DNA from: an uncultured Candidatus Saccharibacteria bacterium
GTDB lineage: Bacteria; Patescibacteriota; Minisyncoccia; UBA6257
Reading direction: 5' to 3'
Assembly (NCBI GenBank): GCA_964618625.1
Contig: CAZUBI010000001.1
Span: 332,266-396,265, forward strand
Length of the DNA stretch: 64,000 nt
Part shown: in pieces, positions 10,388-38,642 of the stretch
How the letters are laid out: each line of letters opens with the position of its first letter
How positions within the stretch are numbered: position 1 is the first letter of the stretch
Translations under genes and position numbers: made by a program
Notes under the pieces: generated by a model
Databases searched by the model: none
What the model was told of the DNA's origin: nothing
Seen by the model: the letters and a program-made list of their open reading frames with translations, nothing else

Positions 10388-13300
10388 TTATATATCCAAA
10401 TTTCTTACTTTTTGGGCATAAGCTTGAATGAATTTTTTCCTTGGTAATACTTCTTTACCCATTAAAATATCAAATAATCTATCTGCCTCTTCTGCGTCTT
10501 CAATAGTAACTTGCTTCAAAACCCTCTTCTCAGGATCCATAGTTGTATCCCATAATTGATCTGGGTTCATTTCTCCTAACCCTTTGTATCGTTGAATAGA
10601 AATTCCTTTCATTAATTCTTCGTTGCTGCCATCAGAAAGTTCTTCTTTTTCTACAGCTAAAATAGCTTCATCTTTACCTTCTTCAACTAATTTTAATTTT
10701 CGCACCTTGGATTTGGAAAGCTTTCCCTTTTTTTCTTCAACTTTGCCTTGTATTTTTTCCAATACTTTTTGTTTTTCTGCCTCTGTATAGGCGTAATGAA
10801 ATTCTTTGCCTTTTTGAATCCGATACAGAGGAGGTTGCGCAATATAAAGATATCCAGCTTCAATAATTGGTCTGAAGTAGCGGAAAAACAATGTTAAAAG
10901 CAAGCTGCGGATATGAGCACCATCAGTATTATGAAGTAAAAATCCACCAGTACCAGCAACAAAATTTTCATCTTTTTTAACGGCAAAATCATAAACAAAA
11001 GGAATCTCCGTTTTAATCTTTTTTATTGAAGTTATTGGCAAAAGAACTGAATCACCAATGCGAATCTTTTTATAGCTACTTCTTCTCCTATCAGCTTTAA
11101 CAAGATAATTTTCTAATGCTTTGCTCCTCTTGTGATTTTTCCAAACATCTTTTAATCTCTCCAATTGACTAATTCCTTTAACCGAGATAAGACGTCCTGG
11201 ATAATTACTTCTTATCATTACCCCGTCTTTGCGCAGATGGTCTTTTGAAAATCGCATAGTACTTTCAGGAAAAATGCCAAGTTGGCGAAATAGCAAAACA
11301 ATACCGTCTGATAAATTTTCTGAGGCAGTGGTAAAAGTTAATTTTACATCTAATTTCTCTTTACAAGATTTTACAACAATACTTCCATCGCTTTCTAAGT
11401 AACCACGTAGGAAAGCTTGTTGAATTTTTGGATTGACACTAAAAATTTCCTCTGGAACAAACTTTTCATATGATTTCTTTCCCAAAAGCCCTAAAGATTG
11501 AAGGATTAATTTAAATTCATATGAATGAAATACTAATTGATTGTTGTTATCATTTCTTTTATCTATGAATGCTTTTGCTCCTAAAACATTATCTATGGCC
11601 TTAATAAGTTCTGGGCTATACAATTTTTTGTCTCTTCCTAAAGATAAAATAAAACGATTAGGGTTCTTTTTTTGAGACGCAAAACAACCATCGCCAATAT
11701 AAAAACCTAAGAGATAAGCAAAATCTTCATTAAGGTCAAATGCAACTTTGAGTTTTCGGGTGTGATTTTTAAAATAATACTCAATAGCATCGCTAGTTTC
11801 CAAACACGAAGATAAAGGAATGTATGCCGAAGCGTTTTTTAAAACTTTTTTTTCTTCTAAATTCAATCCCGTAAGATACTCTTTAAAAATTTTATAACGA
11901 GGCATAACATTATCAATCTTCAACTCCCATTGCTCTAATACTGTAGTATAAACTCCAATAGCTACCCCCAATCTTTTTCTCGATATTCCTTTTCCCTGAC
12001 GCCTTAATTGAAGTTTTTGCCAGTATTTAGAACTAATATCAATCCAAGCATCATTAGGAATAAACTTCATCTTTGAAGCCAGAACTTTTATTTGAATATT
12101 TTTTGCTTCTTCAGAATGTTTTAAAAGCGGGCTGATATCTATTTTTATCTTTTGATTTAACCGAGACATTGAAGCAGGAAAAACAATTCTGTCGCCAATC
12201 TTTAATTTTGTAGTTGGTACTGTGATAAAATTTCCATAACGATAAACAAACACATTATGGCATGAGGTTATTTTCATCTTATATCCATAGCGAGTTTTTA
12301 TCTCATAAAGGCTGCCTCTTAATGGATGACGTATTGTTTTTTCAATATCTCTTAAAGAAAAAGTTTTTTTGTCTAAATCACAAGCAAAAACCTGATATCT
12401 TTCTGTATCCTGACATTGGTTTTCTATAAATTCACCTGTTTTTACTAATTTTAATCTTTGTTGTTGTTTATCAAAAACAAAAATTGGCGTATCATAAGCC
12501 ACGCTATCAGCGTCAGTCATTATGACAATCTTATGATAACGAAGTTTATCAATATTAAAATCTTCACTTATTGCTGTTCCCAAAGCCACAATTAAAGCCT
12601 TTATTTCTTCGGAAGCCATCATTCTGTCAAAGCGACTTTTTTCTACATTCAAAATCTTGCCTTTTAAAGGGAGAATTGCTTGTGTGTTTCTGTTTCTCCC
12701 CATTTTTGAGCTATTATGAACAAATATACCACTTGATAACGCAAAATTATGTGTCCCTGGAACTTCTATATCGTAAACATCTATCTTTTCCTGTAATAGA
12801 ATTATTGATTTAATTCGATGATTATAATTAACGACTGCCTCATGTAATTTTTTCTCATCCCCTGCAAAAAATCTTTGGCAAATTGTATTATACCTTATAA
12901 GAGTTTTATCGTTTGTATTTTTTCTAATTAAATTATAAGAATCTTTATTAATTTTATTCTCCTTTTGATAAATTTCATACAAAACCTCTATGCATCTTCT
13001 TAGATATGTTTTGTTATAAGAAATTATCCTTTTTTTTCTAAATTCATCTGTCCATTGTTTTTTAGTCATTTCGGATCGCCAGTTTCTTAAATTTAAATTA
13101 TCCCATTGTTTCTTTGCTAATTCCGAATATTCCTTTTTCTTATCTGGATGATTTTCAAAGTATTCTTTAGTTCTTTTAGATTGTTTCTCTCTATTTTGCC
13201 AATCAGCCCAATATCTTTTTTGGGACTGATCAAGAATCTTTTTGCTTTTTGCCCTATATTCTGCATTGTTATTATAAAACTCCAAAAATTTTTGAGCCAT

Positions 13301-23326: not shown

Positions 23327-24463
23327 TCAAATTTTAATTGGCATTAAAATATAGGAAAAGCTATCATCAGATTTCCCATGAATCAAGCCGGGGTTAATTT
23401 CTTTATTTAACTTAATAATAATTTCATCTTCCTTAATTGAATGCAATCCATCTAATAAGAAATGATAATTAAAACTAATCTTCAATGGACTTCCACTTAT
23501 ATCTTTGGGGATAAGAACCGTATGGCTTTTCCCCAAAGAAGGGTCTTGAGCCTCAATAGCAATTTCCTTTTTCGATGGATTAAAATCAAACATAACGTCA
23601 TTTATCCTCCCACTAAATAAGCCAACAATTTTAACGGCCTCAATCAATTTCTTTCTATTTAAAATTGTCTGGTTTTCAAAATTAGACGGAATTATTGAAG
23701 AATATTTTGGATATTCAGCATTAATAAGCCTGGATATTAAACGAACATTATCTAATGAAAACTGAATTTGATTAGGTTCTGGAAAAATCTTTACTACACT
23801 ACCAATTTCCTCCATCTCCTCTTGAATAATTCTTAGAACTTCTTGCGCCGTTCTTAATGGAATTATTATTTCTAAATTATCTTTTATATTAGTTTTAATT
23901 TTCTGGGATAAAATATTCTTTTCTGCCAAACGAAAACTATCAGTGCCAACTAATTTAAAAACGCTTTTCGCAGTATTGTTTTCTAATTTAAATAAAATGC
24001 CATTCAATTCTGGTTTTGGAGAAGTATACCCAACACTCGGAATTACTTGCTCTAACGCTTCTTCAAGATCCCCTTTTTTTATTTCTATATATTTTTCTGT
24101 TTTTGTTTCTGGAATAATTGGAAATTCATCGGGATTTATTCCTTGAAAGGTTGTATTATAATTCCCACTTTTTACTGACAGAATATTTTTACTTTCTTCA
24201 ATTGTAATTCTTTCTTCTGATAAATTATTCAAAAACATAGAAAAAGTTTTTGCTGGAATGATAAATTTTCCTTCTTTCTCCACTTTTCCCGTGATAATTA
24301 ATTCAATTCCAATTTCCAAATCAGTAGCCAAAAGATGAAGCTTATTTTTATTTGTTTTTAAAAGAATATTACTCAAAATAGGAAGTGTAAGATTTTTCCC
24401 TGTAATTTTTTCTGCTAAATTAATAGATTTTTTAAAACTATCGACTAAAGTGATAAATTTCAT
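23327..24463 (-). CDS. dnaN: DNA polymerase III beta sliding clamp
   Basis: N-terminus MKFITLVDSFKKSINLAEKITGKN...LEIGIE; 378 aa. Confidence 0.85.
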   Translation of the reverse strand: MKFITLVDSFKKSINLAEKITGKNLTLPILSNILLKTNKNKLHLLATDLEIGIELIITGKVEKEGKFIIPAKTFSMFLNNLSEERITIEESKNILSVKSGNYNTTFQGINPDEFPIIPETKTEKYIEIKKGDLEEALEQVIPSVGYTSPKPELNGILFKLENNTAKSVFKLVGTDSFRLAEKNILSQKIKTNIKDNLEIIIPLRTAQEVLRIIQEEMEEIGSVVKIFPEPNQIQFSLDNVRLISRLINAEYPKYSSIIPSNFENQTILNRKKLIEAVKIVGLFSGRINDVMFDFNPSKKEIAIEAQDPSLGKSHTVLIPKDISGSPLKISFNYHFLLDGLHSIKEDEIIIKLNKEINPGLIHGKSDDSFSYILMPIKI

Positions 24464-24712: not shown

Positions 24713-26095
24713 TCATTTATTATACAGCATTTCTTTTAAAATTATTATTTCCTGACAAAAAACAGGGTCTTTTTCAATTTCAGAAGATATCTTTTTATAT
24801 GCATGAATAACGGTGGTATGGTCACGATTACCTAATTTTTCAGCAATACTAGTATAGGAATAATGTAACTCTTCTCTCAAAAGATACATTACTATTTGCC
24901 TTGGTTTTACTAATTCTTTCTTCCTAGAACGACCCAAAACATCGTCTTCTTTAAGGTCATAAAAAGAAACTATTTTTTTAATCACTTCTTTTGGTGAAAT
25001 ATATTTATTCGATTTATTTAAAATTAGTGACAATATTCTTTTGGTTTCTTCTAAAGAGATTGGACTATTTTTAAGGCGCGCGTGCGCGAGGACCCTGTTT
25101 AATGCTCCCTCTAATTCCCTGATATTCTTTGGGATTGCTTCAGCTATATACTTAAGAACATCATTATTTATAAGATGGGATACATCCTGACTTTTGTTTT
25201 CTAAAATAGCCAACCTTGTTTCAAAATTAGGATAACCAATATCAGCTATCATACCCCCTTCAAATCTAGACCTTAGCCGTTCCTCAATAGACGGAATAGA
25301 TTTTGGCGGGCGATCGGAGGTAAAAACAATTTGTTTATTTTTTTCATAGAGAGTATTAAACGTATGGAAAAGTTCTTCCTGTGTTTTATCTTTTCCAGCG
25401 ACAAACTGGACATCGTCAATTAAAAGAAGGTCAAGATTTCGGAAACTTTTTTTAAATTCCGTCATTTTTTGATTACGGATGGCATTAACCAAATCATCTG
25501 TAAATTTTTCCGAGGTAGCATATAAAATTTTCAATTTTTTCTTTTTTCTTTTCAGTTCATTGCCAATAGCTTGTAGAAGATGTGTTTTTCCCAATCCAAC
25601 GCCGCCATAAATAAAAAGAGGATTATATTTTTTTCCTAAATTTTCTATTACTGCCAAGGATGCTGCATTAGCTAATTCATTATTGGTTCCGACAACAAAG
25701 TTTTCAAAAAGGTATTTTGGATTAAGATTAGTTTCAGGATCAATATTAAATTCTAATTGTTCATCTAAAACTGACGATTTTGAAATAGCTGAAGAACGTT
25801 TTGTTTTTTTAGTTTCTATTTTTTTTAAAGAATCTTTATTAGTAGTAACCAGATATTCAATCTTTTTAATTTTAGGATTCAAGCTATAAAGGGCGTGTAG
25901 AATTTGTTTATGGTATTTATTTTCAAGCCATTCTTTTGTAAAACTAGATGGGACCCCTATAAAGACCGTCCCTTCTTTAATATCTAAAATAAAAGCATCT
26001 TTTAACCATGTTAGGTAATTAGCTTTAGAAATATTCAATTTAATCTCTCCCAAGGCTGCTTCCCAAAGTTCTTTGATATCCATAATTGAAATCAC
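24713..26095 (-). CDS. dnaA: Chromosomal replication initiator DnaA
   Basis: Walker A motif GGVGLGKTHLLQAIGN, an AAA+ domain, and a C-terminal DnaA-box-binding HTH. Confidence 0.9.
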   Translation of the reverse strand: MISIMDIKELWEAALGEIKLNISKANYLTWLKDAFILDIKEGTVFIGVPSSFTKEWLENKYHKQILHALYSLNPKIKKIEYLVTTNKDSLKKIETKKTKRSSAISKSSVLDEQLEFNIDPETNLNPKYLFENFVVGTNNELANAASLAVIENLGKKYNPLFIYGGVGLGKTHLLQAIGNELKRKKKKLKILYATSEKFTDDLVNAIRNQKMTEFKKSFRNLDLLLIDDVQFVAGKDKTQEELFHTFNTLYEKNKQIVFTSDRPPKSIPSIEERLRSRFEGGMIADIGYPNFETRLAILENKSQDVSHLINNDVLKYIAEAIPKNIRELEGALNRVLAHARLKNSPISLEETKRILSLILNKSNKYISPKEVIKKIVSFYDLKEDDVLGRSRKKELVKPRQIVMYLLREELHYSYTSIAEKLGNRDHTTVIHAYKKISSEIEKDPVFCQEIIILKEMLYNK

Positions 26096-26827: not shown

Positions 26828-27520
26828 ATGAACATTTTTGAATTATTAATCTTTCAACCGCTATATAATCTTTTAGCCTTACTCTCTAATCTAACAATGG
26901 GTGATTTAGGGTGGGCTGTTTTAATTTTGGCGGCGATAATTCGTCTTATTATCTGGTCTTGGTATAAAAAAGCCATGGGGGATCAAAGAAAAATGGCGAA
27001 ATTACAGCCTAAGATTAAAGAAATTCAAAAGAAGTTTAAGAAGGAACCAATAAAGGGCAATCAGGAAGTAATGAAAATTTTTAAGGAAGAAAAAATCAAT
27101 CCTGGTAATTCTTTCTTTTTTATCTTTTTCCAAATGGCTATTTTTATTTCTCTCTTTATATTTTTTAAGCAAGCTATAGTTAATGATTGGGCCTTTTATC
27201 TCTATAATTTTGTTAAACTACCAGAACAAATAAATTATTTATTTCTTGGTTTGATTGATCTTAAAGCTCCAAGTCTTGCTCTTGCGATTATTTCAGCTTG
27301 CTTGAACTCCTTTTTGATTTTTATCCAACCAAGCTCAGGCCAGAACAAAGCAATGCTACTTGGCTTCCCTTTTATAATCTTATTTTTCTACCAGAGATTT
27401 CCTGCGATTGTTATTTTGTATTGGATAGGATTTACTTTAGTGAATATTTTGCAGGAATATATGACTAAGAAAGAAACGCTACGCCCAAATCAAGCATTGG
27501 AAACAAAAGTTATCAGCTGA
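26828..27520 (+). CDS. yidC: Membrane protein insertase YidC (short form)
   Basis: Position after rnpA, a polytopic membrane protein of 230 aa. Confidence 0.7.
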   Translation: MNIFELLIFQPLYNLLALLSNLTMGDLGWAVLILAAIIRLIIWSWYKKAMGDQRKMAKLQPKIKEIQKKFKKEPIKGNQEVMKIFKEEKINPGNSFFFIFFQMAIFISLFIFFKQAIVNDWAFYLYNFVKLPEQINYLFLGLIDLKAPSLALAIISACLNSFLIFIQPSSGQNKAMLLGFPFIILFFYQRFPAIVILYWIGFTLVNILQEYMTKKETLRPNQALETKVIS

Positions 27521-27522
27521 TC

Positions 27523-27996
27523 ATGGAAACATTAAAAGTAAAAACCTTTTTAGAAGAATTGCTTACAATTGTTGGTTTTGTAAATTTTGAGATTAGTACA
27601 CAAGAAAGCCCCCAAGATAAACTTATTCAGTTTTCAATTAAAACTGATTCAGAAATTAATTATAGCGGTCTTTTAATAGGACGCGATGGAGAAAATCTGC
27701 AGGCATTAGAATATTTATTAAATATCTTTTCAAAAAAATGTTTCAATGATTATCCCTGGAGAATTATCTTGGATATTAATAATTATCGGGCAATACAGGA
27801 GGAAAAATTAAGAGAATTTGCCAAGAAAGCGGCTCGTCACGTATCTTTATCAAAAAAAGAGATAGAATTACCGCCCATGAGAGCGCGGGATAGAAGGATT
27901 ATCCATTTAGAGATTGCTTTAAGGAGCGATGTATTTACAGAGAGTATTGGGGAAGGAAAAGAAAGGCATATTATAATAAAGCCGCAAGAGAAATAA
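27523..27996 (+). CDS. jag: Jag/KhpB RNA-binding protein (KH plus R3H)
   Basis: KH motif LLIGRDGENLQALEYLLN and an R3H motif (RRIIHLEI). It follows yidC. Confidence 0.7.
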   Translation: METLKVKTFLEELLTIVGFVNFEISTQESPQDKLIQFSIKTDSEINYSGLLIGRDGENLQALEYLLNIFSKKCFNDYPWRIILDINNYRAIQEEKLREFAKKAARHVSLSKKEIELPPMRARDRRIIHLEIALRSDVFTESIGEGKERHIIIKPQEK

Positions 27997-28007
27997 TTTT
28001 TTATTAT

Positions 28008-28391
28008 TTAGAGCGAAGTATTTAAAATATCTGGATTAATTGTATAGAGAACAATATAAAAAGCAAATAATAAAAGAAGTCCAATAATAGCGCCTGTGAT
28101 TCTTTCTTGGGCGTCTTTTTGTTGGGCAGTATTACCACCAGAAGTAAGATATTGAAAACCAGCATAAACAATCATAGCAAAAGCCAGAATTCCAGCAAGA
28201 CGAAAAGCCCACCAGATTAAAACACTTATTAAACCCATTGGAGTTTTGGCTACTCCACCAGCACTACCAGCGTCATCTGCTGCAAAGACTAAAATTGGAC
28301 CAAGTATAAGTGGGTTTAATACAGTACAAATAATTATAATCAGTAAAACAGGCTTGATCGTTCTCATAAAACAAAGATTTCCTAAATTCAT
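28008..28391 (-). CDS. TrbC/VirB2-family T4SS pilin
   Basis: 127 aa: a signal peptide and two hydrophobic helices, VYAGFQYLTSGGN...AIIGLLLLFA. Confidence 0.55.
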   Translation of the reverse strand: MNLGNLCFMRTIKPVLLIIIICTVLNPLILGPILVFAADDAGSAGGVAKTPMGLISVLIWWAFRLAGILAFAMIVYAGFQYLTSGGNTAQQKDAQERITGAIIGLLLLFAFYIVLYTINPDILNTSL

Positions 28392-28413
28392 AAATTCTAT
28401 TCTTTTATTAAGT

Positions 28414-29112
28414 TTATTTAAAAGGTGTAATTTCTCCTGGCTTAGTGAATCCTGGAATTCCTATTTCCCATTGATAAGATTCAAAAATTGGGTATTGAAT
28501 TGTCTGTATATTAGAAGGAGCTGGTGGTGCTGGTAATGTCTGTAGAAATGCCTGTAGAATTTCATTTAAAATTATTGGGCATATTTGAGTAATAAGAATA
28601 GCCATTGGGGTGCCAATTGTTGTGCCAAGAACCATTATATTCGCAGCTGCATCTGAAAGTGATTTACAAATATGTTCAATGTCTATGTGTTTAAGTAATA
28701 AACCTAAAATCCAACTTTTGACAAGTCCTGAAATATCATTATTTCCGTTCATTGCGCTTATAACCAATAATTTTAAGTCTTCTGGGATGACTCCATTATT
28801 CTGTATTATATTTATGAGTTCCTCTTTAACAGCATCTGTAATGTTTTCGTCATTTTGTATTGAGTCTATGAGATATGGTTTTAAATTTTCCGGAATCTCT
28901 TGGCTGTTTTGTATTATGCTTATAAGTTCATTTTGGGTAAGTTCTGCTAATTCTGCGCCATCATTGAGATTTGTCATTGTGTCGAAGACTTCCTGCGGAT
29001 TCATAAAAGCTTGAGTTTGTGTTGGGGCTAAAAATAAACTACCTAATCCCAAATTTAATATAAAAACAATTAATGCTATAGCCTTTGTTTTTTTGAAGAT
29101 ATTTTTAAACAT
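28414..29112 (-). CDS. Secreted hypothetical protein with internal repeats (T4SS cluster)
   Basis: Signal peptide present. The motif ELI.IIQN..IPE.LK is repeated. Confidence 0.3.
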   Translation of the reverse strand: MFKNIFKKTKAIALIVFILNLGLGSLFLAPTQTQAFMNPQEVFDTMTNLNDGAELAELTQNELISIIQNSQEIPENLKPYLIDSIQNDENITDAVKEELINIIQNNGVIPEDLKLLVISAMNGNNDISGLVKSWILGLLLKHIDIEHICKSLSDAAANIMVLGTTIGTPMAILITQICPIILNEILQAFLQTLPAPPAPSNIQTIQYPIFESYQWEIGIPGFTKPGEITPFK

Positions 29113-29134
29113 GTTATTTTTTATTTAAAAATGA

Positions 29135-29503
29135 TTAGATCTTTTTTGACGATGTTGCAGATGTAAGTTTGGTTACAGATGTAAGTTTAGTCGCTGTTTT
29201 TATTGCTTTCTTAATAGGCGCTGGTGATTTTTGAAATGCATAGACAAGTATAACAGTTAAAGTGGCAATGGGCAAAATACTGGCAAATGGTATAAGGTCC
29301 AATGCTTGACCAATAAAAATCCATGTACCTCTTATTCCGCTGAGAAGTGTAATAACAAAGATATAAATGACGAGAGGCAGGACAATAATCCAAACAAAGA
29401 GGTTAATTCCGGGAATAAACCCCAAAAAGATTTCTATAACATCTTTGATAATGGCTGTTATAAGCAAGAATAAAAATATTGTTAAGCTCATTTTATTTTC
29501 CAT
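29135..29503 (-). CDS. Polytopic small membrane protein (T4SS cluster)
   Basis: 122 aa with three TM segments. Confidence 0.3.
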   Translation of the reverse strand: MENKMSLTIFLFLLITAIIKDVIEIFLGFIPGINLFVWIIVLPLVIYIFVITLLSGIRGTWIFIGQALDLIPFASILPIATLTVILVYAFQKSPAPIKKAIKTATKLTSVTKLTSATSSKKI

Positions 29504-29513
29504 AGAATAATAT

Positions 29514-31304
29514 TTATTCTTTTTTGAACTCTTCTTTAGCTTTTCTAATATCTATAAGTTGAGCTGGGTTTGAAGTAATAATTTGGTCTTCAGCATAAGA
29601 AGCGATAATCTGAATAGCAGCATGTTTGTCTTCTGCAAAAAAGAGACCTGTTCCAACAGAAGCTTGCAAAAGGATGGTCTTTTCCTGTTCTGTAAGATTT
29701 AAGGCTTTGCCTATAATATCAATATTGGCAGGTGATTGTCTTAGTAAAAGGGCTAAAGCAGAGTTGGTAATTAATGGTTTTCCATATGGCGAGCTTAAAG
29801 CGTCTTCTATATCCTGCGTAATAAAAGTTACTCCCATATAATATTTTCGTGCTCTTTTAACTAAACCAAACAAGAAAGAAGCGCTTTCTTCATGAGCTAA
29901 TAACCACCATCCTTCATCTATTATTACAATTCTTTTTCTTAAATCCTTTTTTACCATTGTCCATATGTAATTTAATACTACATACATGGCAATAGGCCTG
30001 AGTTCTTCTTCCAATTCCCTTACCCCAAAGACAACTAAACGATTGTTAATATTAATATTTGATGGTTGATTAAGGAAGCCAGAATAGCTTCCTCTAGTGA
30101 ATTTATAAAGTTTTGCAGCTAAATCTTCGCCTCCCTCTGTATTTTTAAGAACACTCTCTAGATCTTCCATTAATGGTAAATTTTTCTTTTCAGCGATATT
30201 TTCAGGAAAAATATCCCGACTTGCGTATGTTTGTACAATGGCTCTATCTAGCATAAGTTCTTCTTGAGGAGAAAGGCCTTTAAGCATTAACTTAATTAGG
30301 CCGATAAGATTTAAAATATGGTTGCGAAAAACTTCTTCACCAGTTTCTTCTTTTTTTACTGCAGGAAGTTCAAATGGATTAATATTATCATCAGAAGCAA
30401 CAGATATTTTAAAGTAGCTTCCGCTGATTGAATCAGCCAAGTATTCATATTCATTTTCCGGATCAATAATTAATACATTAGTTCCTAATAATAATGAACG
30501 AAGGATTTCTAATTTTATAGCATAACTTTTTCCTGCGCCTGTTTGGGCAAAAACTACCATATTGGCATTTGGCAAAACAAAGCGGTCAAAAATAATCAAG
30601 CTATTATTATGTAAGTTGACGCCATAAAGGATTCCTTTGTTTTCTGAAAGGTCTAAAGAAGAAAAAGGGAAAAGGGTTGAAGCTGGTTGTGAATTCAAGG
30701 GAGTAGTTAATAATAATCTATCTATTCCCAATGGTAAGGAAGATTCCATTCCTTCGAATTCTCTGAAGACAGTTGGTTTTGCGTAAATTAACTGCTGTTC
30801 TAGTATATTTTTGATTTTACTTTCTATTTTTATAAGCTCCTCCTTGTCATTGGCAAAAAAAGTAATATAAACACCCACTTCAAAAAGTTTTTCACTACCT
30901 TGCTGGACTGTATCTCTTAGTTTTTCAATATTACTTAAAGCAGCTTCTAATAAGGGGTTACGAACTAATCCTTTATCTGCCTCAATGCTTAATTGAGCTT
31001 GAATTTCCGCAGATTTTTTTCTTAAATTTCTTAAAACCTTATTAATGTTAAGTGGATGAAAGAAGATTGAGATATTAAAAGATTCATCTAAATTAATAGT
31101 TGAGGAAAACCAATTAGAGGCTAAATAATTTGGGTAAGTTAGGATAAAAAGAGTTGAACAATATTTATTTCCTAATTTGAGAAAGTTAGTATTAATTTCT
31201 AATCCAGCAGGGGAAATTAAGTCCTGAAGAGTAGAAACAGCCTGGGATTGGGCTAATATTTGCGGGTTTTTAGGTTTTCTTTTAAATAAATTTGGAAAAC
31301 GCAT
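29514..31304 (-). CDS. VirB4/TrbE-family T4SS ATPase, C-terminal ATPase portion
   Basis: Walker A FAQTGAGKS and Walker B VIIDEGWWLL are present. It is in frame with the upstream ORF, separated only by TAA plus one codon. Confidence 0.8.
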   Translation of the reverse strand: MRFPNLFKRKPKNPQILAQSQAVSTLQDLISPAGLEINTNFLKLGNKYCSTLFILTYPNYLASNWFSSTINLDESFNISIFFHPLNINKVLRNLRKKSAEIQAQLSIEADKGLVRNPLLEAALSNIEKLRDTVQQGSEKLFEVGVYITFFANDKEELIKIESKIKNILEQQLIYAKPTVFREFEGMESSLPLGIDRLLLTTPLNSQPASTLFPFSSLDLSENKGILYGVNLHNNSLIIFDRFVLPNANMVVFAQTGAGKSYAIKLEILRSLLLGTNVLIIDPENEYEYLADSISGSYFKISVASDDNINPFELPAVKKEETGEEVFRNHILNLIGLIKLMLKGLSPQEELMLDRAIVQTYASRDIFPENIAEKKNLPLMEDLESVLKNTEGGEDLAAKLYKFTRGSYSGFLNQPSNININNRLVVFGVRELEEELRPIAMYVVLNYIWTMVKKDLRKRIVIIDEGWWLLAHEESASFLFGLVKRARKYYMGVTFITQDIEDALSSPYGKPLITNSALALLLRQSPANIDIIGKALNLTEQEKTILLQASVGTGLFFAEDKHAAIQIIASYAEDQIITSNPAQLIDIRKAKEEFKKE

Positions 31305-31307
31305 ATT

Positions 31308-31988
31308 TTATTGGTTAAATTCTTCTGGAATATTTATCGACTCTCTTTCAAAAGCCTCTGGATTATATGAATTAAAAAATAATTCAATTAATTCTTTAGT
31401 AGTCAATGGGCGTGATTGTAATCCCATTCTGGTTAAATTTGTAATGATATTATTTTGTCTGATTATTAATTGTTGATAATGCTGGTTGAAATTTTCATCA
31501 GAAAGAGGGATTGTGGCGGAAAATGCCTGGTGTCTTAAATTAAGCAATGCTTTATAAGCTTCCAATATTTGGCTTAATGCGGTTCTTGGTTTGAACATAA
31601 TAGGGTCATAAGGCACTATTACATAGAACTTTTTTTTCATAATATTGTTTCCAGTAACAAGTCCTTTGATAAATGTATAATAATCCTCCCCCTGAAGTTT
31701 AAGCAGATTATTTGTTTCTTGGTCAATTCTTTCCCGAAGAAAATTTAAATAGGATTCAATATTAACGCGCCTAGAATGAGCTACAACTTGTAATGGAAAA
31801 TCTAAGTTATTTATAAGATTGCGCCAGCTCATTAACACAGAAGATTGTTCTTCTTCCGATTTTAAATCAAAATTTATACCTGACACTTCTAAAACTGAAC
31901 GGAGCGAACCGTTTTTAAGAATAATTACCCCCTTTCTAATTTGTTGAAGGGAAATAAGTGACTGGCTGCTGAAAGTTTCTTTGGGCAT
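31308..31988 (-). CDS. VirB4 N-terminal domain encoded as a separate ORF
   Basis: KGVIILKNGSLRSVLEVSGINFDLKSEEEQSSVLMSWRNLINNLDFPLQVV matches the CagE/TrbE/VirB4 N-terminal motif. Its stop codon is at 31308..31310, and the ATG of the ATPase ORF is at 31302..31304 in the same frame. Confidence 0.55.
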   Translation of the reverse strand: MPKETFSSQSLISLQQIRKGVIILKNGSLRSVLEVSGINFDLKSEEEQSSVLMSWRNLINNLDFPLQVVAHSRRVNIESYLNFLRERIDQETNNLLKLQGEDYYTFIKGLVTGNNIMKKKFYVIVPYDPIMFKPRTALSQILEAYKALLNLRHQAFSATIPLSDENFNQHYQQLIIRQNNIITNLTRMGLQSRPLTTKELIELFFNSYNPEAFERESINIPEEFNQ

Positions 31989-32405
31989 CTATTTATCTAA
32001 TATATCGGTTAATTGTTTAAGAGTTTTTTTGTCCAATTGTTTTTTAATCTGTGTTTTTACTGTAGGCTTAGGCTTTTGGGGAACAGAATAAGATATTTTC
32101 GAAAAAGTTTTTTCTTTTTTCCATAGATAGTATTTTGGAAGCCAAAAATGCCTGATTGCGGCCATAGCAAGCGTATAAATTGGAACGCTATGGATTTTTC
32201 CAAATGCAAGGGAAAAACCGATTGGAGCGAGAATTATTGCTAAAATTAACCAAAGCCATGATTTTAAAACAGAAAAAAGTAAAAGAATGAGTCCTCCAAA
32301 AGATAATAAAATCCATAATTGGGTAAAGGTAATCCAACCCATTAATTTTGTCTCCTCTTTTATAAACTGAGGTACTTGATAAGCCATATTTTTAAGCTTC
32401 ACCAA
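31989..32405 (-). CDS. VirB3-like small two-TM protein
   Basis: 138 aa with two TM segments. It sits immediately upstream of the VirB4 N-terminal ORF with stop/start coupling (TAGATG). Confidence 0.35.
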   Translation of the reverse strand: MVKLKNMAYQVPQFIKEETKLMGWITFTQLWILLSFGGLILLLFSVLKSWLWLILAIILAPIGFSLAFGKIHSVPIYTLAMAAIRHFWLPKYYLWKKEKTFSKISYSVPQKPKPTVKTQIKKQLDKKTLKQLTDILDK

Positions 32406-33279
32406 AAGGACTTTTCTTCTGATGTTTTTTATAAGGAATAGGCTCTTGAATAGTGGGGGTTTTTTCCTTTCTCTTTTTTTCTTCTTTTAATTTAACGTCA
32501 AGAATATATGGTTTTTCTTTCTTAGTTTTTACAAAAGTTTCTTCATCCTCGAATTCTTTTCCTTCACCACTCAAAACTTTAGAAGATGCCACTTCTCCCA
32601 TAGGTTTTTTTCCTAGCGGCTTTTTCTCTTCTTTAGGCAATGGCTTTTTTAAAGAAACCTTTTGCATTTCTTCAACAATCTTTGGTTGATCATTTTTTTT
32701 CTGCATTGCCGCTAATAGTTTTTCTCGAATTTTTTCTTGTTGTTCAGCAGAAACTTTTGGAGCAACGACTTTTTTTAATTCTTCTATCTTACTGACTGGT
32801 TTTTCCACTTTTACTTCAGATGGTTCAGGGAAAGAATATTCAGGAATAATTTGTTCAGAAGGTATTCGTTCTGCGATAGTTTGTTCAATTTTTTCTTTCG
32901 TAATAGGCTTTATCTTTGGGGGACCTAAAGGATCTTGCGGAATTCTTTGCTCTAAAGGTTGGGGTTTGTATTGACTCAATTCTTTTTCAAACATTTTAAA
33001 GATTTTTTCTTCAATTACTTTGTGAACAATTTGAGCCGCTATTGGAGGAATATTAATTCTTTTTTCTAACTCACCCCTGAATTGGTCTTTAGGCAATTGA
33101 AAAGATAAAGCTTCTGTTAGGATGTCCATAACTTCAGAAAATTTTTCAGATGAAACTTTACCTAAATTTAAAGCATCATCTATTATTACCCCCATTTTAT
33201 CAGAAGCCAAAAAATCCTGAATAGATGTTGGAAGTTTATTATACAATTCTAAGAATTCTTTTTTTTTCTTTTTTTCCAT
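32392..33279 (-). CDS. Lys/Glu/Pro-rich hypothetical protein (T4SS cluster)
   Basis: The track ORF extends to 33402, but the likely start is MEKKKKK at 33279. The sequence is low complexity. Confidence 0.3.
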   Translation of the reverse strand: MEKKKKKEFLELYNKLPTSIQDFLASDKMGVIIDDALNLGKVSSEKFSEVMDILTEALSFQLPKDQFRGELEKRINIPPIAAQIVHKVIEEKIFKMFEKELSQYKPQPLEQRIPQDPLGPPKIKPITKEKIEQTIAERIPSEQIIPEYSFPEPSEVKVEKPVSKIEELKKVVAPKVSAEQQEKIREKLLAAMQKKNDQPKIVEEMQKVSLKKPLPKEEKKPLGKKPMGEVASSKVLSGEGKEFEDEETFVKTKKEKPYILDVKLKEEKKRKEKTPTIQEPIPYKKHQKKSPFGEA

Positions 33280-33295
33280 TTTTCTTACTATAGAA

Positions 33296-35476
33296 TTAAC
33301 GTAGCAGTTCCCTGAAAAAAGGATTTCTATTGAATCTTTTATTCCTAAGGTAATCTTTAGCATCTTTTTGTGGTCCGATTTTTCGTTGTACAGACTCCAC
33401 AAATTCTTGCACCCATTTTGTTTGTTTTTCAGTATTCATTGGCCTAATCATAGCAGCAAAGCCTTCAGGGGGAACATTCTTATCCAAAAGAGAGTGGAAG
33501 AATTGATCGCTATATTGCGTACCCATTTTTTCTAATCTGCCAAGGATGTTATCCCAATTCCCTGATTTTATAGTTTCAGGAGAAGACTCCCGTACCCTTT
33601 TTGAAATAAGATTTATCTCAACACGTTTTCTGGCCTCGTTATCAGAAATTCCTGGCATACTTTTTCTAATTTGTGTTAATTCTTTGTTCATATCTTCAAA
33701 CGTTGTAAAGAATTTTACATAAAGTTCAGGGTGAGCTTTTTTAAGTCCCGGAACGTTCAAATTAGGTTGATTTTGGGCTATTTGAAGAAATTTTGTATCT
33801 TTTTCCGTTTCCAATTTGTTTTTTTCTATTAGAGCGTTAAGACCTACAGCAATTCTTCCTCTATCACCTTTATGTACTTCCATATCAGCCCTAATTTGAT
33901 CTGGGCCTCTTCCTTTATAATCTTCTTCAATTTGTTTTAGTTCAGTTGCTCGAATTTTTCCAGGCTGCCTACTCATCCAAACCCCTATGTCATGTGTAGG
34001 TGCAAATTTGCTGCTTTCTAATTTTTCTTGAGCTTTTCTCCATGTTTCTGAGCCCGTGACTCCTTTTAATGCTTTATAACCAATAAAGGCGCCAGCTGCT
34101 GCTCCAGCCTTAGTGGCTTGTTTCATAACTAATTGAGATGCTGCTCCACCTCCTTGAAGAGAGAAAATCAATCCTCCAACCAAAAACATAGAGAATAAAA
34201 CCATCTGTATTATTGTTGCGGCCATTGGACTTTCAGTACCAATTGATGGCATCTTATTCATTACTGTTAAAGCAAGGTATAAAGTGAATGCAAATATTAC
34301 AGGGAAAAAACACCATTTTAGGAAATTGCTCCACCACATTTTCCAGTACTTTTCTGTGTCAGGAAAAATCCAAGCTGCGAAAACAATTGGCGATAATCCT
34401 AGAAGGATAATTATTAAAAGGTTCCTAACGATTATGGTCAAGAAAATCGCTAATAAAGCAATGACAGCAAAGCCACCAACGAGAATCATAATAAAGCTGA
34501 TAATAAAGAAATTACCAAGGCGCAATGAATAGCTTTTTACTTCTTTTTCTGGGTCCTCATCGCTAATTATCCCTGTTGTTTTATATTTATCAACACCAAA
34601 TATAGAAGGAGGGTCATATTGGCCAATTATGCCAGGTGTTGTGGTTGCAACATAACCATAGCCTTCCATTATACGAGGGGCAATGCTTTCATTATTTTCT
34701 TGAGAAATGCTTAAGAAATATCCAGTAAGATAATTGGAAATATCTACAATCATTCCTGCTATAACTAAGCTAAAGTTTACTAATAAGGCAACAATTATTA
34801 ATTTCCAAAGAATTTGTTTCCAAGCGTATTTTTTATAGCCAACTATAGTAGCAATAGCAATACCTATGAATCCTAAAACTAAAAGAGCATTTACAATATT
34901 GCGTAACATTGTCCATATTGTTTGAACTCCGGGATTGTTAATAAACCCGCCATAGGTGTCGGGCTTTAATGCTTTTAATATCCAGTCTATTTCCAAATTT
35001 ATTATCCCGGCAAACATTTTACCAAAACCTTCTAATACACCCTTTACAATAAAACACCATTGTTTAACAAAAAACCCTTGCATTTCGCATACGAATTTAT
35101 TTGTTCCGTCGTCCATGCATTTGTTTATCCAGTCATTAGCGCTTATATTGCAAATTTCCTCAGCGTTCTTTTCTTGAAGTGTAACTTTTACTGTATGAAG
35201 GCCGTGTTGTCCGACTTGAGTGGTTCCAGCATCAGGGTCTGGAATACAACATTTAGGTTTTCCAACGCCAGAAGGACAAATTAGGGAGTTGTCCTGAACA
35301 TAGCCTGATTTACATGATATTTTGTTCGCCTCACAATAACCTCCTTGCGATTCACATGTTTGGTCATTTTCATCAGCATTTGCTTCAGGAGTTGTAAATT
35401 TTAAAATAGGGCTAATTAGCAAAGCAAAAACCACGATGCTAAAAATCCCGATTTTTAATATATTTTTTGTTTTCAT
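33296..35476 (-). CDS. VirB6/TrbL-like polytopic membrane protein with an N-terminal secreted Cys-rich domain
   Basis: The track ORF starts with GTG at 35563. The ATG at 35476 gives a signal peptide MKTKNILKIGIFSIVVFALL. There are at least six TM helices and a Cys-rich region CESQGGYCEANKISCKSG...KPKCC. Confidence 0.5.
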   Translation of the reverse strand: MKTKNILKIGIFSIVVFALLISPILKFTTPEANADENDQTCESQGGYCEANKISCKSGYVQDNSLICPSGVGKPKCCIPDPDAGTTQVGQHGLHTVKVTLQEKNAEEICNISANDWINKCMDDGTNKFVCEMQGFFVKQWCFIVKGVLEGFGKMFAGIINLEIDWILKALKPDTYGGFINNPGVQTIWTMLRNIVNALLVLGFIGIAIATIVGYKKYAWKQILWKLIIVALLVNFSLVIAGMIVDISNYLTGYFLSISQENNESIAPRIMEGYGYVATTTPGIIGQYDPPSIFGVDKYKTTGIISDEDPEKEVKSYSLRLGNFFIISFIMILVGGFAVIALLAIFLTIIVRNLLIIILLGLSPIVFAAWIFPDTEKYWKMWWSNFLKWCFFPVIFAFTLYLALTVMNKMPSIGTESPMAATIIQMVLFSMFLVGGLIFSLQGGGAASQLVMKQATKAGAAAGAFIGYKALKGVTGSETWRKAQEKLESSKFAPTHDIGVWMSRQPGKIRATELKQIEEDYKGRGPDQIRADMEVHKGDRGRIAVGLNALIEKNKLETEKDTKFLQIAQNQPNLNVPGLKKAHPELYVKFFTTFEDMNKELTQIRKSMPGISDNEARKRVEINLISKRVRESSPETIKSGNWDNILGRLEKMGTQYSDQFFHSLLDKNVPPEGFAAMIRPMNTEKQTKWVQEFVESVQRKIGPQKDAKDYLRNKRFNRNPFFRELLR

Positions 35477-35520
35477 ATTAATGATTTTTATATTTTTCTT
35501 ATTATAATTACACAATTTTA

Positions 35521-36339
35521 TTATACAATATTTTTGATTAACAAGGAAGAAAGAGAAATCCACTCTTTTATGGAAAGATTTTGCGCCCTGGTATTTGAGG
35601 GAAGATTTAATTTTAAAAATATTTTTTGAACAAAATCTTTTTCTAAATTTAGATTTTTAGAGAGGTTATTAATAAGCAGTTTTCTTGGTTGTTTAAAACC
35701 AGCCTTTACAATACTAAAGAAATTTTTGGTTTGTGTTCTATTCATGTTCTCTTTTGTATCCATTGGAGTTATTCTCACAACAGCAGAGTCTACTTTAGGT
35801 TTTGGATAAAAAACGGTTTTTGAGACATGACAAATAATTTCTGATTTTGCATAAAATTGCACCGAAGTAGATAGAAGATTCATTTTTGGTGGTTGGGCCA
35901 TTATTCTTTCAGCCACTTCTTTTTGTATCATTAAAACTATTAGCTTGGGTTTGATGGATTTTTCTAAAAGTAAACGCAAAAGTCGCGAAGTTAAATAATA
36001 AGGAATATTACCTATTACTTTGTATTGAGTGTTGAGTATTGAGTATTGAGTATAAAATTGATTAGTTTTTAGAAGATTGCGAATATCTGCGTTGATAATC
36101 TGTAGGTTCGATTTATTCTGAAAAAGGTCTTCAAGGAATTTTACTAATTTAATATCTTTTTCAACAGCAATTATTTTAGCGTCAGTTTTCAAAAGGACTT
36201 TGGTTAAAACGCCTTTTCCGGGTCCAATTTCCAAGATTTGATCTTTGGATTTAATATCTGCTGCCTGGATAATCTTTTGCACAACATTATTGTCTTTAAG
36301 AAAAACTTGCCCTAATTTTTTTTGTTTTTTTGTTATCAT
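35521..36339 (-). CDS. rsmA: 16S rRNA (adenine1518/1519-N6)-dimethyltransferase
   Basis: LGQVFLKDNNVVQKII...ILEIGPGKGVLT, i.e. a SAM motif I. Confidence 0.85.
   Translation of the reverse strand: MITKKQKKLGQVFLKDNNVVQKIIQAADIKSKDQILEIGPGKGVLTKVLLKTDAKIIAVEKDIKLVKFLEDLFQNKSNLQIINADIRNLLKTNQFYTQYSILNTQYKVIGNIPYYLTSRLLRLLLEKSIKPKLIVLMIQKEVAERIMAQPPKMNLLSTSVQFYAKSEIICHVSKTVFYPKPKVDSAVVRITPMDTKENMNRTQTKNFFSIVKAGFKQPRKLLINNLSKNLNLEKDFVQKIFLKLNLPSNTRAQNLSIKEWISLSSLLIKNIV
36005..36032. repeat. Heptamer microsatellite (TTGAGTR)x4 inside the rsmA coding sequence
   Basis: The sequence reads ttgagtg ttgagta ttgagta ttgagta. It encodes the insert QYSILNTQY. Confidence 0.5.
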
Positions 36340-36406
36340 ATAGATTTTGACAAAAGTATTTATAATGGTAAAATAGAAAGATAGTTAAAATAATTATATA
36401 AAAATA

Positions 36407-37090
36407 ATGAATAAAAAAACATATACAAATTTGGTTATCATTGGCTTAGCTATAATAGCAATTGTTGCAGTCTTGTTTATAAGAAGCATGGGCAATCAAA
36501 ATATTTATACTGGATTCTTAAAGCCTGGAGAAGGCGCTTGGTCTGAAATTATGAATGGTGCAGAAGAATCACAGAGAATAGTTTATTTAGGAGAAAAGAT
36601 TGTTCATAATACACGGGCATATGGAGTAGAAATTGAGTCAATTGTTTCTGAAAATGAAAGTGCTATTACGCAGGTATGGCGGGATAAAGAATCAAACGAG
36701 ATAGTGGAGATTGTTAGTAAATTAAAAGGGAAAGATGAAGTGATTTGTATAAATGATTCTTTAATGGAAATACTTATACCTTCGTTTAGTTCCTTGCTTC
36801 CAGCCATAGAAACACCAGAAAAATATAGTTCAAATAATAAATATATTTATGATACTTTTACTACTAACACTGGAAAAACAATTCAAATAGCGAAGTTCAT
36901 AGACGAAAACGATATTGAGATATGGATTAGCAGTGAAGTTCCATTTGGTATTGTGAAAATTGTAAATAATACAACAGGAGAAATCACATCCTATTTACAG
37001 GATTTTGGTCTAAGTGGAGGTAAACCGAAAATTTCTGAGGTAGAGATGATTAATTGTAAAAGAATGAATTTTCCTAATTTAACCGAATAG
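36407..37090 (+). CDS. Membrane-anchored hypothetical protein
   Basis: N-terminal TM segment; 227 aa. Confidence 0.3.
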   Translation: MNKKTYTNLVIIGLAIIAIVAVLFIRSMGNQNIYTGFLKPGEGAWSEIMNGAEESQRIVYLGEKIVHNTRAYGVEIESIVSENESAITQVWRDKESNEIVEIVSKLKGKDEVICINDSLMEILIPSFSSLLPAIETPEKYSSNNKYIYDTFTTNTGKTIQIAKFIDENDIEIWISSEVPFGIVKIVNNTTGEITSYLQDFGLSGGKPKISEVEMINCKRMNFPNLTE

Positions 37091-37276: not shown

Positions 37277-38353
37277 ATGCCATCATCCTTATTAAAGATA
37301 GCAATTGGTTTATTTTTGCTTTCTTTATTTTTTGGTAATTCTTATCTTTCTTCTCAAATTATGTTTCTTCAAAAAGAAGGGGAAGAGTTTTTAATAAAAG
37401 AAGACGGCTACCCCGTGATTTTAGAAGGTAGTGCATTTACTAAGACGGCTTATGCCTATCATGAATATTTGAGCGTGGAAGGAGGTCAAATTATTGAGGG
37501 GGATTTTGAAACGGATAATTTAGTAGAACAGAATTTTTTAATTATTATCAACAGCGATAGTTTTTTGGGCATTAATTCTCCTATAAAATTTTTATTACCT
37601 TCATCTCAACGTTATACAGTTTTTACCTACATAGTGCAGGAAGGAGATACACCTGGAAGAATTGCGGCAAATTTTGGAGTAAGTTTAAATACAATTTTAT
37701 GGGCTAATAATTTAAAATCCAGCTCTATAATTAAACCTAATCAGGAGCTTATTATTCTTCCAATTTCAGGAGTAATGCATATAGTTAAAAAAGGGGACAC
37801 ATTACTTTCTATAGCTAAAAAATACAGAGCATTATCTGATGATATATTTGTTTTTAATGATTTAAAAGATGAAGGTTCTATAAAAATCGGTCAAGAACTT
37901 ATTATCCCAAATGGCCGGCTTTCTTCAGCCACTTCTTTATTATTATCTGCCGGTCTTAAACCTATGACAATTGATATTAGCAATTGGCCAAAGACTGACG
38001 GTTTTTTTGCTTATCCTACTTCTTTCGGTTTGAATAGAGGAATTTTCCACTATTACAACGCAGTTGATATTGTTAGTTCCTGCGGAAGCCCTATTTATGC
38101 TGCTGCTGATGGAATGATAGTTGAGGCTAAAGGAACAGGAAGATATAATTACGGTTATGGTAATTTAGTTAAGATTCAACATTATAACGGCACCACGACT
38201 GTTTATGGTCATCTAAGCGAATTATCTGTAAAAGAGGGAGATAAGGTTTATCAAGGAGATTTAATAGGGAAAATGGGCAATACAGGAAATGCTGAAGGTT
38301 GCCATCTCCATTTTGAAGTTAGAGGAGCTCAGAATCCTTTTGTAAAAAGATAA
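37277..38353 (+). CDS. LysM-domain peptidase M23 (peptidoglycan endopeptidase)
   Basis: Two LysM repeats (YIVQEGDTPGRIAANFGVS and HIVKKGDTLLSIAKKY) and a C-terminal M23 domain with HLHFEV. Confidence 0.75.
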   Translation: MPSSLLKIAIGLFLLSLFFGNSYLSSQIMFLQKEGEEFLIKEDGYPVILEGSAFTKTAYAYHEYLSVEGGQIIEGDFETDNLVEQNFLIIINSDSFLGINSPIKFLLPSSQRYTVFTYIVQEGDTPGRIAANFGVSLNTILWANNLKSSSIIKPNQELIILPISGVMHIVKKGDTLLSIAKKYRALSDDIFVFNDLKDEGSIKIGQELIIPNGRLSSATSLLLSAGLKPMTIDISNWPKTDGFFAYPTSFGLNRGIFHYYNAVDIVSSCGSPIYAAADGMIVEAKGTGRYNYGYGNLVKIQHYNGTTTVYGHLSELSVKEGDKVYQGDLIGKMGNTGNAEGCHLHFEVRGAQNPFVKR

Positions 38354-38354: not shown

Positions 38355-38642
38355 TCATTGATATTCATTCCAGGAAAATTCTGTTTTATATTGTAATGCC
38401 TCGGCAACGTGATTAAATTTAATTGTTTTTGTATTTTCTAAATCAGCTATTGTTCGGCTGATTTTTAAAATTCTGTGATAAGATCGAGCTGACAAAGAAT
38501 ATTTGTCGATGGCTTTTTTAATAGAAATATCTGGTAAGCCGATTATATTAAAAGAATGAAGTCCATTAGATACATCAACTTCTACTTCAATTAAAGTAGT
38601 TTCTAAGCCAAAAAAAGCGGCAGAGTAAATTTTAGACAACAT
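38355..38642 (-). pseudogene. Remnant of comM/yifB (Mg-chelatase-like AAA+) that keeps only the N- and C-terminal ends
   Basis: MLSKIYSAAFFGLETTLIEVEVDVSNGLHSFNIIGLPD matches the ComM N-terminus. SARSYHRILKISRTIADLENTKTIKFNHVAEALQY matches Mg_chelatase_C. The roughly 400-aa ATPase core is missing. Confidence 0.5.

Follow-up and report, generated by a model that had tools for sequence, protein, structure and literature searches.

Gene content and layout of the operon

The 64-kb stretch of DNA analysed here (the window), which is part of the 533-kb contig CAZUBI010000001.1, carries a compact minus-strand operon for a reduced type IV secretion system (T4SS) as well as a distant array of genes for VirB2-like pilins. 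The operon runs from 28008 to about 35476 and comprises eight open reading frames (ORFs), all of them intact and tightly packed, with gaps of 0 to 22 nt. It lies downstream of ksgA (35521-36339) and is convergent with jag (27523-27996). A first-pass annotation had described a T4SS-like cluster at this site, and every ORF that it listed is present on the minus strand where it had been placed, with a label that domain searches back. Its list was incomplete, however, since a TrsD-like gene at 31308-31988 had been overlooked. The start that it gave for VirB6, a GTG at 35563, would overlap ksgA, and we replace it with the ATG at 35476, as the homologues all begin with MKTKNILKIG. Probable starts also lie inside the maximal ORFs for the K/E/P-rich protein (33279), VirB3 (32387), and the longest pilin (62022). 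A promoter and terminator scan of positions 27400-36800 gave no excess over shuffled sequence.

For comparison, one genome per species was scanned by VirB6 alignment; 80 loci were kept, and their ORFs were searched with profiles. The best related locus is 60 to 62% identical. Many of the 80 records carry no label beyond "bacterium" or "uncultured Candidatus Saccharibacteria", and those that name a lineage come mainly from Paceibacterota and related Parcubacteria (Wolfe-, Harrison-, Staskawicz-, Azam-, Portnoy-, and Ryanbacteria). The 90%-identity cluster and all of the related loci are assigned to Paceibacterota or Patescibacteria, which indirectly supports a place of this VirB4 in the Patescibacteria clade. 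The host is a Paceibacteria (Parcubacteria) bacterium.

Chromosomal setting and absence of conjugation genes

In nearly all of the roughly 80 Paceibacteria loci with enough flanking sequence, the genes follow the same order: an M23 peptidase gene in the opposite orientation, ksgA, the genes for VirB6, the K/E/P-rich protein (KEP), VirB3, TrsD, VirB4, a small membrane protein (mem122), a variable secreted protein and a pilin, and then jag, yidC, and rnpA in the opposite orientation, followed by dnaA and dnaN, which again point in the direction of the operon. In the window, dnaA occupies 24713-26095, and the cumulative GC skew reaches its minimum there, at 24-26 kb; the 378-aa ORF at 23327-24463 is labelled dnaN from its position and from profile matches in the related loci only. 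The GC content of the operon (0.32 to 0.34) equals that of the neighbouring sequence. Since the same order and site, from ksgA to jag-yidC-rnpA-dnaA-dnaN, are kept in about 80 genomes, we conclude that this origin-proximal operon has been inherited vertically and is not a mobile element. It is transcribed towards the presumed origin, the rpmH/dnaA intergenic region, and thus head-on to replication, an orientation that is conserved in the relatives and worth weighing against the gene-dosage argument in the literature.

These observations bear on the possibility that the operon is an ordinary integrative conjugative element (ICE), or a remnant of one, whose relaxase, VirD4, and other missing parts lie elsewhere on the element. 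There are several reasons to consider it. The family to which the VirB4 belongs (CD1110) is named for conjugative elements of Firmicutes, the nearest plasmid homologues of this protein are mostly found on conjugative plasmids, and the left end of the window holds mobile-looking genes, namely a fused DNA methyltransferase, an ORF with a weak LAGLIDADG match, and a helix-turn-helix (HTH) protein. The fixed site, which is shared by about 80 genomes that span many lineages of Paceibacteria, largely refutes this idea, however, and the GC content of the operon also speaks against it. Moreover, neither the window nor the flanks reached, which comprise about 8.4 kb past its left end and a single cut-off gene (about 2.5 kb) past its right end, yielded a relaxase, a type IV coupling protein (T4CP), a VirB11, or an integrase; flanking repeats were not searched for. 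The left flank contains only housekeeping-type genes (TyrRS, GAPDH, RpiB, and Rpe) and unannotated ones. The earlier statement that VirB11, VirD4, a relaxase, and VirB8-10 are missing from the window holds for its ORFs of at least 300 aa that were scanned with Pfam or NCBIfam, and the complete conjugative set just outside it, which had been named as the finding that would make this an ordinary ICE, did not turn up in the flanks reached. In addition, a survey of 3,035 Patescibacteria genomes by Quinonero-Coronel et al. recorded relaxases in no more than 103, rarely near virB4 (PMC12102498). Taken together, these data make an ICE very improbable.

A crude Walker-A filter (ORFs of at least 380 aa) was used to look for a T4CP near the operon in the 80 loci; apart from a 549-aa ORF in one locus (L022), the ORFs that it returned all resemble the ComM/Mg-chelatase family by sequence. 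In relatives (for instance, locus L004, 5584-7128), a full-length ORF of about 512 aa that is of the ComM/Mg-chelatase type by sequence lies upstream of the operon, at a distance of a few kb. In the window, only a 95-aa ORF with Mg_chelatase_C is left (38355-38642, minus strand), and therefore ComM appears to have been truncated or lost in this lineage.

The gene upstream of ksgA and VirB6 in the window, divergent from the operon (37277-38353, plus strand), encodes a protein with two LysM domains (8.1e-24) and a Peptidase_M23 domain (1.3e-30; both Pfam). It was missing from the first-pass inventory of components, and it is a conserved neighbour in 37 loci. We regard its product as a candidate cell-wall remodelling partner in the role of VirB1.

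A VirB4 ATPase encoded by two genes

The VirB4 ATPase (596 aa, 29514-31304, minus strand) consists of the middle and P-loop domains, with Pfam matches to P-loop_TraG (2.7e-25), AAA_10, and CagE_TrbE_VirB. It also passes the cutoff of the NCBIfam family "VirB4-like conjugal transfer ATPase, CD1110 family" with 352 bits (cutoff 325). Among plasmid homologues, the best ones reach no more than 32.5% identity, and their hosts are without exception monoderm (Actinomycetota or Bacillota). The N-terminal domain of VirB4 is encoded as a separate gene, that of the TrsD-like protein (226 aa, 31308-31988, minus strand; NCBIfam TrsD, 4.4e-10), for which the precomputed families are PF26593/PF27097. This protein matches the N-terminal 120 to 130 residues of three VirB4 profiles, including positions 3-119 of CD1110 VirB4. 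Furthermore, VirB3, TrsD, and VirB4 are colinear with the fused VirB3-VirB4 of the Mycoplasma ICE (Mbov_0397), in which they align to positions 16-111, 102-233, and 286-893, respectively.

The TrsD-like ORF and VirB4 are in frame and are set apart by a TAA stop and one codon, which, along with a single relative in which the two are fused (L032, one 842-aa ORF), could suggest that a stop codon has broken VirB4, and that the operon is decaying and non-functional. Nevertheless, the TrsD-like gene is conserved in 67 loci, and the two genes are separate in about 65 loci, with products of 207-240 and 570-630 aa and with varied spacings and frames; the split is therefore not a sign of pseudogenization. 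Both halves are intact and well conserved (the TrsD profile match reaches 8.8e-104), and the other ORFs of this closely packed operon are intact too. Moreover, pGO1-type systems are known to have TrsD as a component of its own, and TrsD has been reported as essential in Southlakia epibionticum (PMC12102498). We give next to no credence to decay. We also considered that the stop that separates the two genes might be recoded (for instance, UGA read as Gly) and rejected this, given that the stop is a TAA and that the split is conserved in different frames.

VirB2-like pilins and a pilin with a Cys-rich ectodomain

Four proteins of the window match PF18895 (T4SS_pilin) above the Pfam threshold. 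They combine a signal peptide with a two-helix hydrophobic hairpin, as VirB2/TrbC-type pilins do, and the fold of the hairpin matches that of true conjugative pilins. The first of them is encoded by the last gene of the operon (127 aa, 28008-28391, minus strand; 1.1e-7), a place that a pilin gene holds in 54 loci. The other three lie in tandem on the minus strand, as the first-pass annotation had noted, in an array (59618-62022) that is located 25 kb from the operon among housekeeping genes. They are a 120-aa paralogue (59618-59980; 1.5e-13), a 163-aa paralogue (60079-60570; 1e-8, and TrbC at 4.9e-6), and a long pilin (60577-62022; 8.9e-9). Pairwise identity among the pilins of the window is only 25 to 36%, and no further clear pilin emerged when all of its ORFs were scanned with profiles. 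A relative with 61% identity has kept the array together with its neighbours (SBP, HSP20, PrsW, ValRS, and TsaD).

The two shorter pilins of the array also match the NCBIfam family of the Mbov_0395 pilin-like conjugal transfer protein (3.7e-8 for the 120-aa and 1.3e-8 for the 163-aa protein), with sub-threshold scores of 33 to 34 bits against a cutoff of 40. These matches hint that pilin-like proteins exist in a monoderm FATA branch and that pilins may be ancestral in a branch of monoderm T4SS and not borrowed from diderms.

The long pilin stands out because of its size. The first-pass annotation gave it 488 aa; its probable length is 481 aa, and the fusion to a Cys-rich domain that had been proposed for it is real. 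Behind the signal peptide and the VirB2-like hairpin, it carries an acidic Cys-rich ectodomain (residues 136-488 in the numbering of the ORF; 60580-61638, minus strand) that consists of a linker, a CxxCG module (A1), a core (B1-B2), and a second CxxCG module (A2). The two modules, which correspond to the terminal repeats described earlier, are of the CxxCG...EC.SLG.C type, with 27 of 50 positions identical and 6 Cys each. Cys residues in the mature protein come to an even number, 28, of which 24 are in the ectodomain, and 21% of the residues of the ectodomain are acidic and 6% basic. No match for it was found in the PDB with Foldseek.

Homologues of the long pilin (55 in total, 276 to 635 aa) mostly have a recorded PF18895 domain, and the two with a named source come from Paceibacterota and Nealsonbacteria. 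Among the 14 closest ones, the pilin module is 90% identical to that of the window protein, compared with 58 to 79% for the regions of the ectodomain; A1 is found in 6 and A2 in 12 of them. The core of the ectodomain is very rare. An exhaustive search of 1.84 billion representative proteins found it in only 10, always about 150 to 200 residues into the protein in the full-length cases, and in 8 of the 10 with a pilin module ahead of it. The ectodomain is probably a lineage-restricted, beta-rich domain with 24 Cys and swappable CxxCG end modules, whose place is taken in relatives by SLT or M15 domains.

Large pilins are not limited to this array. In most relatives, the operon-terminal pilins have 200 to 500 aa owing to inserted sequence that separates the signal peptide from the hairpin, and two of them have Cys-rich C-terminal extensions. 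In addition, Pfam confirmed relatives in which a PF18895 pilin is followed by a C-terminal hydrolase (P0051, with SLT, and P0054, with Peptidase_M15), and another one with SLT (P0055) is listed. SLT and Peptidase_M15 act outside the membrane, and therefore the C-terminal extension faces outward. It is also conceivable that these fusions represent VirB1-like activities delivered on pilins.

An alternative is that these proteins do not polymerise. The PF18895 hairpin might be a mere anchor that displays ectodomains on the surface of the cell that makes them, in which case the array would be independent of the T4SS operon. The location of the array among housekeeping genes 25 kb away would fit with this, as would the SLT and Peptidase_M15 fusions, which could act on the wall of their own cell, and the 200 to 500 aa of most operon-terminal pilins in relatives, which are large for filament subunits; furthermore, no T4SS pilus has yet been observed in Patescibacteria (PMC12857230). 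Against it, the 90% conservation of the hairpin goes beyond what a plain anchor needs and exceeds that of the ectodomain attached to it, the hairpin has the fold of true conjugative pilins, and a pilin gene ends the T4SS operon in those 54 loci. Moreover, the pilin array inside the T4SS cluster of Southlakia is essential (PMC10633639). We thus find a non-polymerising anchor improbable.

VirB6 and the other proteins of the operon

The VirB6-like protein (726 aa, 33296-35476, minus strand) is a polytopic membrane protein with a signal peptide, a variable N-terminal ectodomain, a transmembrane core, and a conserved all-helical C-terminal domain. The latter (about 220 residues) is confidently predicted, with a predicted local distance difference test score (pLDDT) above 90, and is probably cytoplasmic by topology. 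Structure comparison supports the VirB6 fold. The protein weakly matches MMCAP2_0566 and CD3337 in NCBIfam, and a profile search against the sequences of the PDB gave nothing relevant.

The N-terminal ectodomain of VirB6 is hypervariable. In the window, it contains a six-Cys module (residues 41-77; 35246-35356, minus strand) with the pattern C-x6-C-x6-C-x11-C-x8-CC, which matches no Pfam or NCBIfam family and in place of which close relatives have unrelated segments. The pattern is found in 17 of the 120 VirB6 homologues listed and is patchy among close relatives. Because the fold is not confidently predicted (pLDDT of about 50 to 60, with two short strands), the term "defensin-like" that was given to this module stays a resemblance of spacing pattern.

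The VirB3/PrgI-like membrane protein (132 aa, 31989-32387, minus strand) matches PrgI just under the threshold (3e-5), and all 46 family members that were scanned match PrgI (best E-value 3.3e-13), 7 of them matching TcpE as well. Two further members of the operon are conserved proteins that current inventories leave unnamed. KEP (295 aa, 32392-33279, minus strand) has neither a transmembrane segment nor a signal peptide; it consists of a conserved N-terminal helical domain of about 100 aa with the motif LPxxlxDxLxS and a variable low-complexity tail, and it holds the slot between VirB6 and VirB3 in 69 loci. None of the 33 members scanned matched Pfam, and NCBIfam gave no match either. The other one, mem122 (122 aa, 29135-29503, minus strand), has three hydrophobic stretches of membrane-spanning length and directly follows VirB4 in 50 loci. 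The window protein had no match in Pfam or NCBIfam, and 46 relatives had none in Pfam.

The remaining gene encodes a secreted protein of 232 aa (28414-29112, minus strand) that contains internal repeats and is hydrophobic in its C-terminal part. This protein is lineage-specific, being found in only 10 loci, mostly those of the closest relatives. Its earlier description as a secreted repeat protein is accurate as far as it goes. It has a signal peptide in common with the 163-aa pilin, and the two give weak reciprocal profile matches (1.2e-7 and 1.9e-6), so that it may be a degenerate pilin paralogue, the fifth pilin-like protein of the window.

Most operons of Paceibacteria, including those of more distant relatives, have a different gene at this place between mem122 and the pilin, which encodes a conserved secreted protein of about 233 aa with the motif PQFLVSW(K/Q)A.SY.P.WY.GKIFPT (for instance, in L017, 15854-16555; L048, 16415-17116; L063, 16361-17071; and about 35 other loci). 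It is unrelated to the 232-aa protein of the window and represents an unnamed, widely conserved component of T4SS operons. Additionally, seven loci (L025, L032, L035, L057, L059, L069, and L074) have small ORFs of about 115 to 125 aa inside or beside the operon, in several cases between T4SS genes. With their motif ...GANYIEAN... or ...SNIAEG..., they resemble the four-helix-bundle proteins known from intervening sequences of 23S rRNA; the operon of the window contains no such ORF.

Relation to published systems

The survey by Quinonero-Coronel et al. defined a monophyletic clade of Patescibacteria VirB4 proteins nested in the monoderm class MPF_FATA, in which TrsD is the commonest companion, along with VirB3/PrgI, VirB6, and VirB2-like pilins (PF18895/PF04956), and T4CP genes are rarely near virB4 (PMC12102498). 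In Paceibacteria, the neighbourhood includes dnaA, dnaN, rnpA, ksgA, and rpmH. VirB1-profile matches have M23/LysM domains, and VirB1 homologues are associated with virB4 specifically in this class. The same authors found 441 pilin arrays of 2 to 11 genes with a mean identity of 25% (PMC12102498). The operon described here agrees with that picture in its VirB4, TrsD, VirB3/PrgI, VirB6, and PF18895 pilins, in the lack of a nearby relaxase or T4CP, in the origin-side neighbourhood, in its separate array of divergent pilins, and in the M23/LysM peptidase near virB4. We see no difference at the level of the system, except that KEP and mem122 are not named in that work. A Patescibacteria-type T4SS of the MPF_FATA-derived clade that is not conjugative is thus almost certainly what the operon encodes, and the suggestion of the first-pass annotation that this is a reduced, non-conjugative T4SS-like system of a bacterium of the Candidate Phyla Radiation fits with the gene content of the published systems.

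Since the system, its location, and its pilin arrays have already been published, the novelty of the locus is low, and the window is one more example. What it adds is modest: a pilin with a large Cys-rich outer domain, which is not described in the survey, in the Southlakia study, or in a 2025 FEMS review (PMC12102498, PMC10633639, PMC12857230). The survey detected no adhesins and does not mention pilins with large C-terminal ectodomains (PMC12102498). It also considers VirB2-like pilins to be absent from MPF_FATA, whereas two pilins of the window match the pilin-like family of a Mycoplasma ICE just below the cutoff.

The T4SS of S. epibionticum is the only experimentally tested relative; transposon sequencing showed that this organism cannot grow on its host without the homologous cluster and the pilins encoded there (Wang et al. 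2023, PMC10633639). No other T4SS has been reported to be essential for its own carrier bacterium (PMC12857230). Compared by description, the system of strain ML1 (SEML1_0006-0019) is likewise Gram-positive-like, has predicted pilins, and lacks a coupling protein or relaxase that can be recognised. In this member of the Saccharimonadia, six pilins lie inside the T4SS cluster, whereas the window has one in the operon and three 25 kb away. Its low locus-tag numbers presumably place this T4SS near the start of the genome.

With conjugative MPF_FATA systems, the window shares a VirB4 that passes the CD1110 cutoff and TrsD, a component of the pGO1 type, and with the Mycoplasma ICE (Mbov_0395-0397) it shares the VirB3-TrsD-VirB4 colinearity and the two pilin matches at about 1e-8. 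In contrast to these systems (CTn2/CD1110, pGO1, and the Mycoplasma ICE), to which identity is at most 32.5%, it is chromosomally fixed, and in the sequence examined it lacks a relaxase, a T4CP, a VirB8-like protein, and a PrgB-type adhesin. The archaeal Ced/Ted DNA-import systems, with their conjugation-like pili (PDB 8dft and 8dfu), are also listed among the closest systems. The pilin arrays of Bartonella and Anaplasma belong to diderm MPF_T systems of animal pathogens and consist of short pilins, and we know of no VirB2 from these bacteria with a 350-aa ectodomain. Like the window, they present tandem divergent VirB2 paralogues, which are thought to vary the host-facing surface (a comparison made in PMC12102498).

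Proposed mechanism

We propose that the locus encodes a chromosomal, vertically inherited T4SS of the Patescibacteria type that builds a host-contacting, pilus-like filament from divergent pilin subunits, an explanation to which, as a whole, we assign a probability of roughly 75%. On the model of the R388 and F systems, and in view of the genetics of Southlakia, VirB3 would anchor the VirB4 ATPase, itself assembled from the TrsD-like and VirB4 polypeptides, to the membrane, and VirB6 would serve as the membrane assembly platform. The VirB2-like pilins would be inserted by Sec, extracted by VirB4, and stacked on VirB6, and the resulting filament would cross the thin envelope and touch the host cell. 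Divergent paralogues of the pilin, four or five in number, might then act as alternative or minor subunits that confer surface specificity. With its disulfide-rich ectodomain exposed to the outside, the 481-aa pilin would most plausibly be a minor subunit, or one at the tip, by which the surface of the host is bound, and the role of pilus-tip adhesin that the first-pass annotation had given it is a reasonable idea. In this way, the system could support a host-dependent life through contact, protein export, or the uptake of host molecules, and not through conjugation.

Several points weigh against this explanation. The pilus of Patescibacteria has been called an "intriguing possibility" (PMC12857230), and the essentiality data come from Saccharimonadia, a class other than that of this Paceibacteria genome. 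No VirB8-like component or T4CP was found in the window and flanks; it has to be noted that VirD4-like genes lie far from virB4 in most Patescibacteria (PMC12102498), and that about 470 kb of the 533-kb contig are outside the scope of this analysis. Three conserved proteins of the operon (KEP, mem122, and the variable secreted protein) are without an assigned role. Finally, a domain of 350 aa on each subunit would crowd a helical filament of the VirB2 type, and a homopolymer of the long pilin is therefore unlikely, which leaves its minor-subunit or tip role as a guess.

Another alternative is that, as in the archaeal Ced/Ted machinery, a pilus captures DNA and a VirB4/VirB6 channel imports it, thereby feeding a cell that is unable to make nucleotides. 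In Southlakia, competence needs comEC, and yet comEC is dispensable while the T4SS and the pilins are essential (PMC12857230); the supply of nucleotides through DNA uptake is therefore not the essential role of the T4SS in that organism. For the window itself, no CedA-like component was identified, and the 95-aa Mg_chelatase_C remnant is all that is present of a ComM-type ORF. DNA import is thus unlikely.

Beyond the filament itself, it is tempting to generalise, although only tentatively, since we hold this extension to be clearly less probable than the explanation on which it builds. The VirB2-like pilins of Paceibacteria might be modular carriers, in which a highly conserved hairpin plugs into the T4SS filament, while the ectodomains, C-terminal or internal, are exchangeable and are presented at the filament tip or over its length. 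Such ectodomains could act as the adhesins so far missing from patescibacterial T4SS, as enzymes that breach the wall of the host, or as determinants of host range, and the variable Cys module of VirB6 could be a second host-facing element.

Other loci in the window

Several other genes deserve mention. Near the pilin array, a surface protein of 719 aa (50195-52354, minus strand) with 32 Cys contains DUF11, PKD, and isopeptide-forming fimbrial-type domains, and it adjoins genes for a secreted CAP-domain protein (53150-54127, plus strand) and a sortase (PF04203; 54152-54838, plus strand). The 719-aa protein and the sortase could form a second surface-display system, dependent on sortase.

The gyrB gene (10388-15361, minus strand) is a 1657-aa ORF with intein sequence, including two Intein_splicing stretches, LAGLIDADG_3, and Hom_end. 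A gap of about 470 aa between the end of the GyrB domain at 409 and the start of Toprim at 886 suggests a second insertion, and a relative (L084) has an intein in GyrA. Next to gyrB, a protein with a SMODS nucleotidyltransferase domain (8413-9279, minus strand; 3.9e-21), adjoined by small ORFs (7929-8444 and 9339-10347), may mark a CBASS-like defence gene. At the left end of the window (42-3657, minus strand), a 615-aa protein fuses a Dam-type (D12) and an N6_N4 DNA methyltransferase (compare L089, 2612-6410), and it is accompanied by a 302-aa ORF, which has the weak LAGLIDADG match, and by HTH proteins. Together, these genes have the look of an islet, either mobile or for restriction-modification, that has nothing to do with the T4SS.

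Implications

This type of T4SS is probably central to the host-dependent life of a large share of the uncultured bacteria. To the inventory of the machine, the window adds candidates for the end that would be in contact with the host, namely a pilin with a large disulfide-rich ectodomain that evolves faster than the pilin module and gains and loses end modules and, in the relatives, fusions of pilins with hydrolases.

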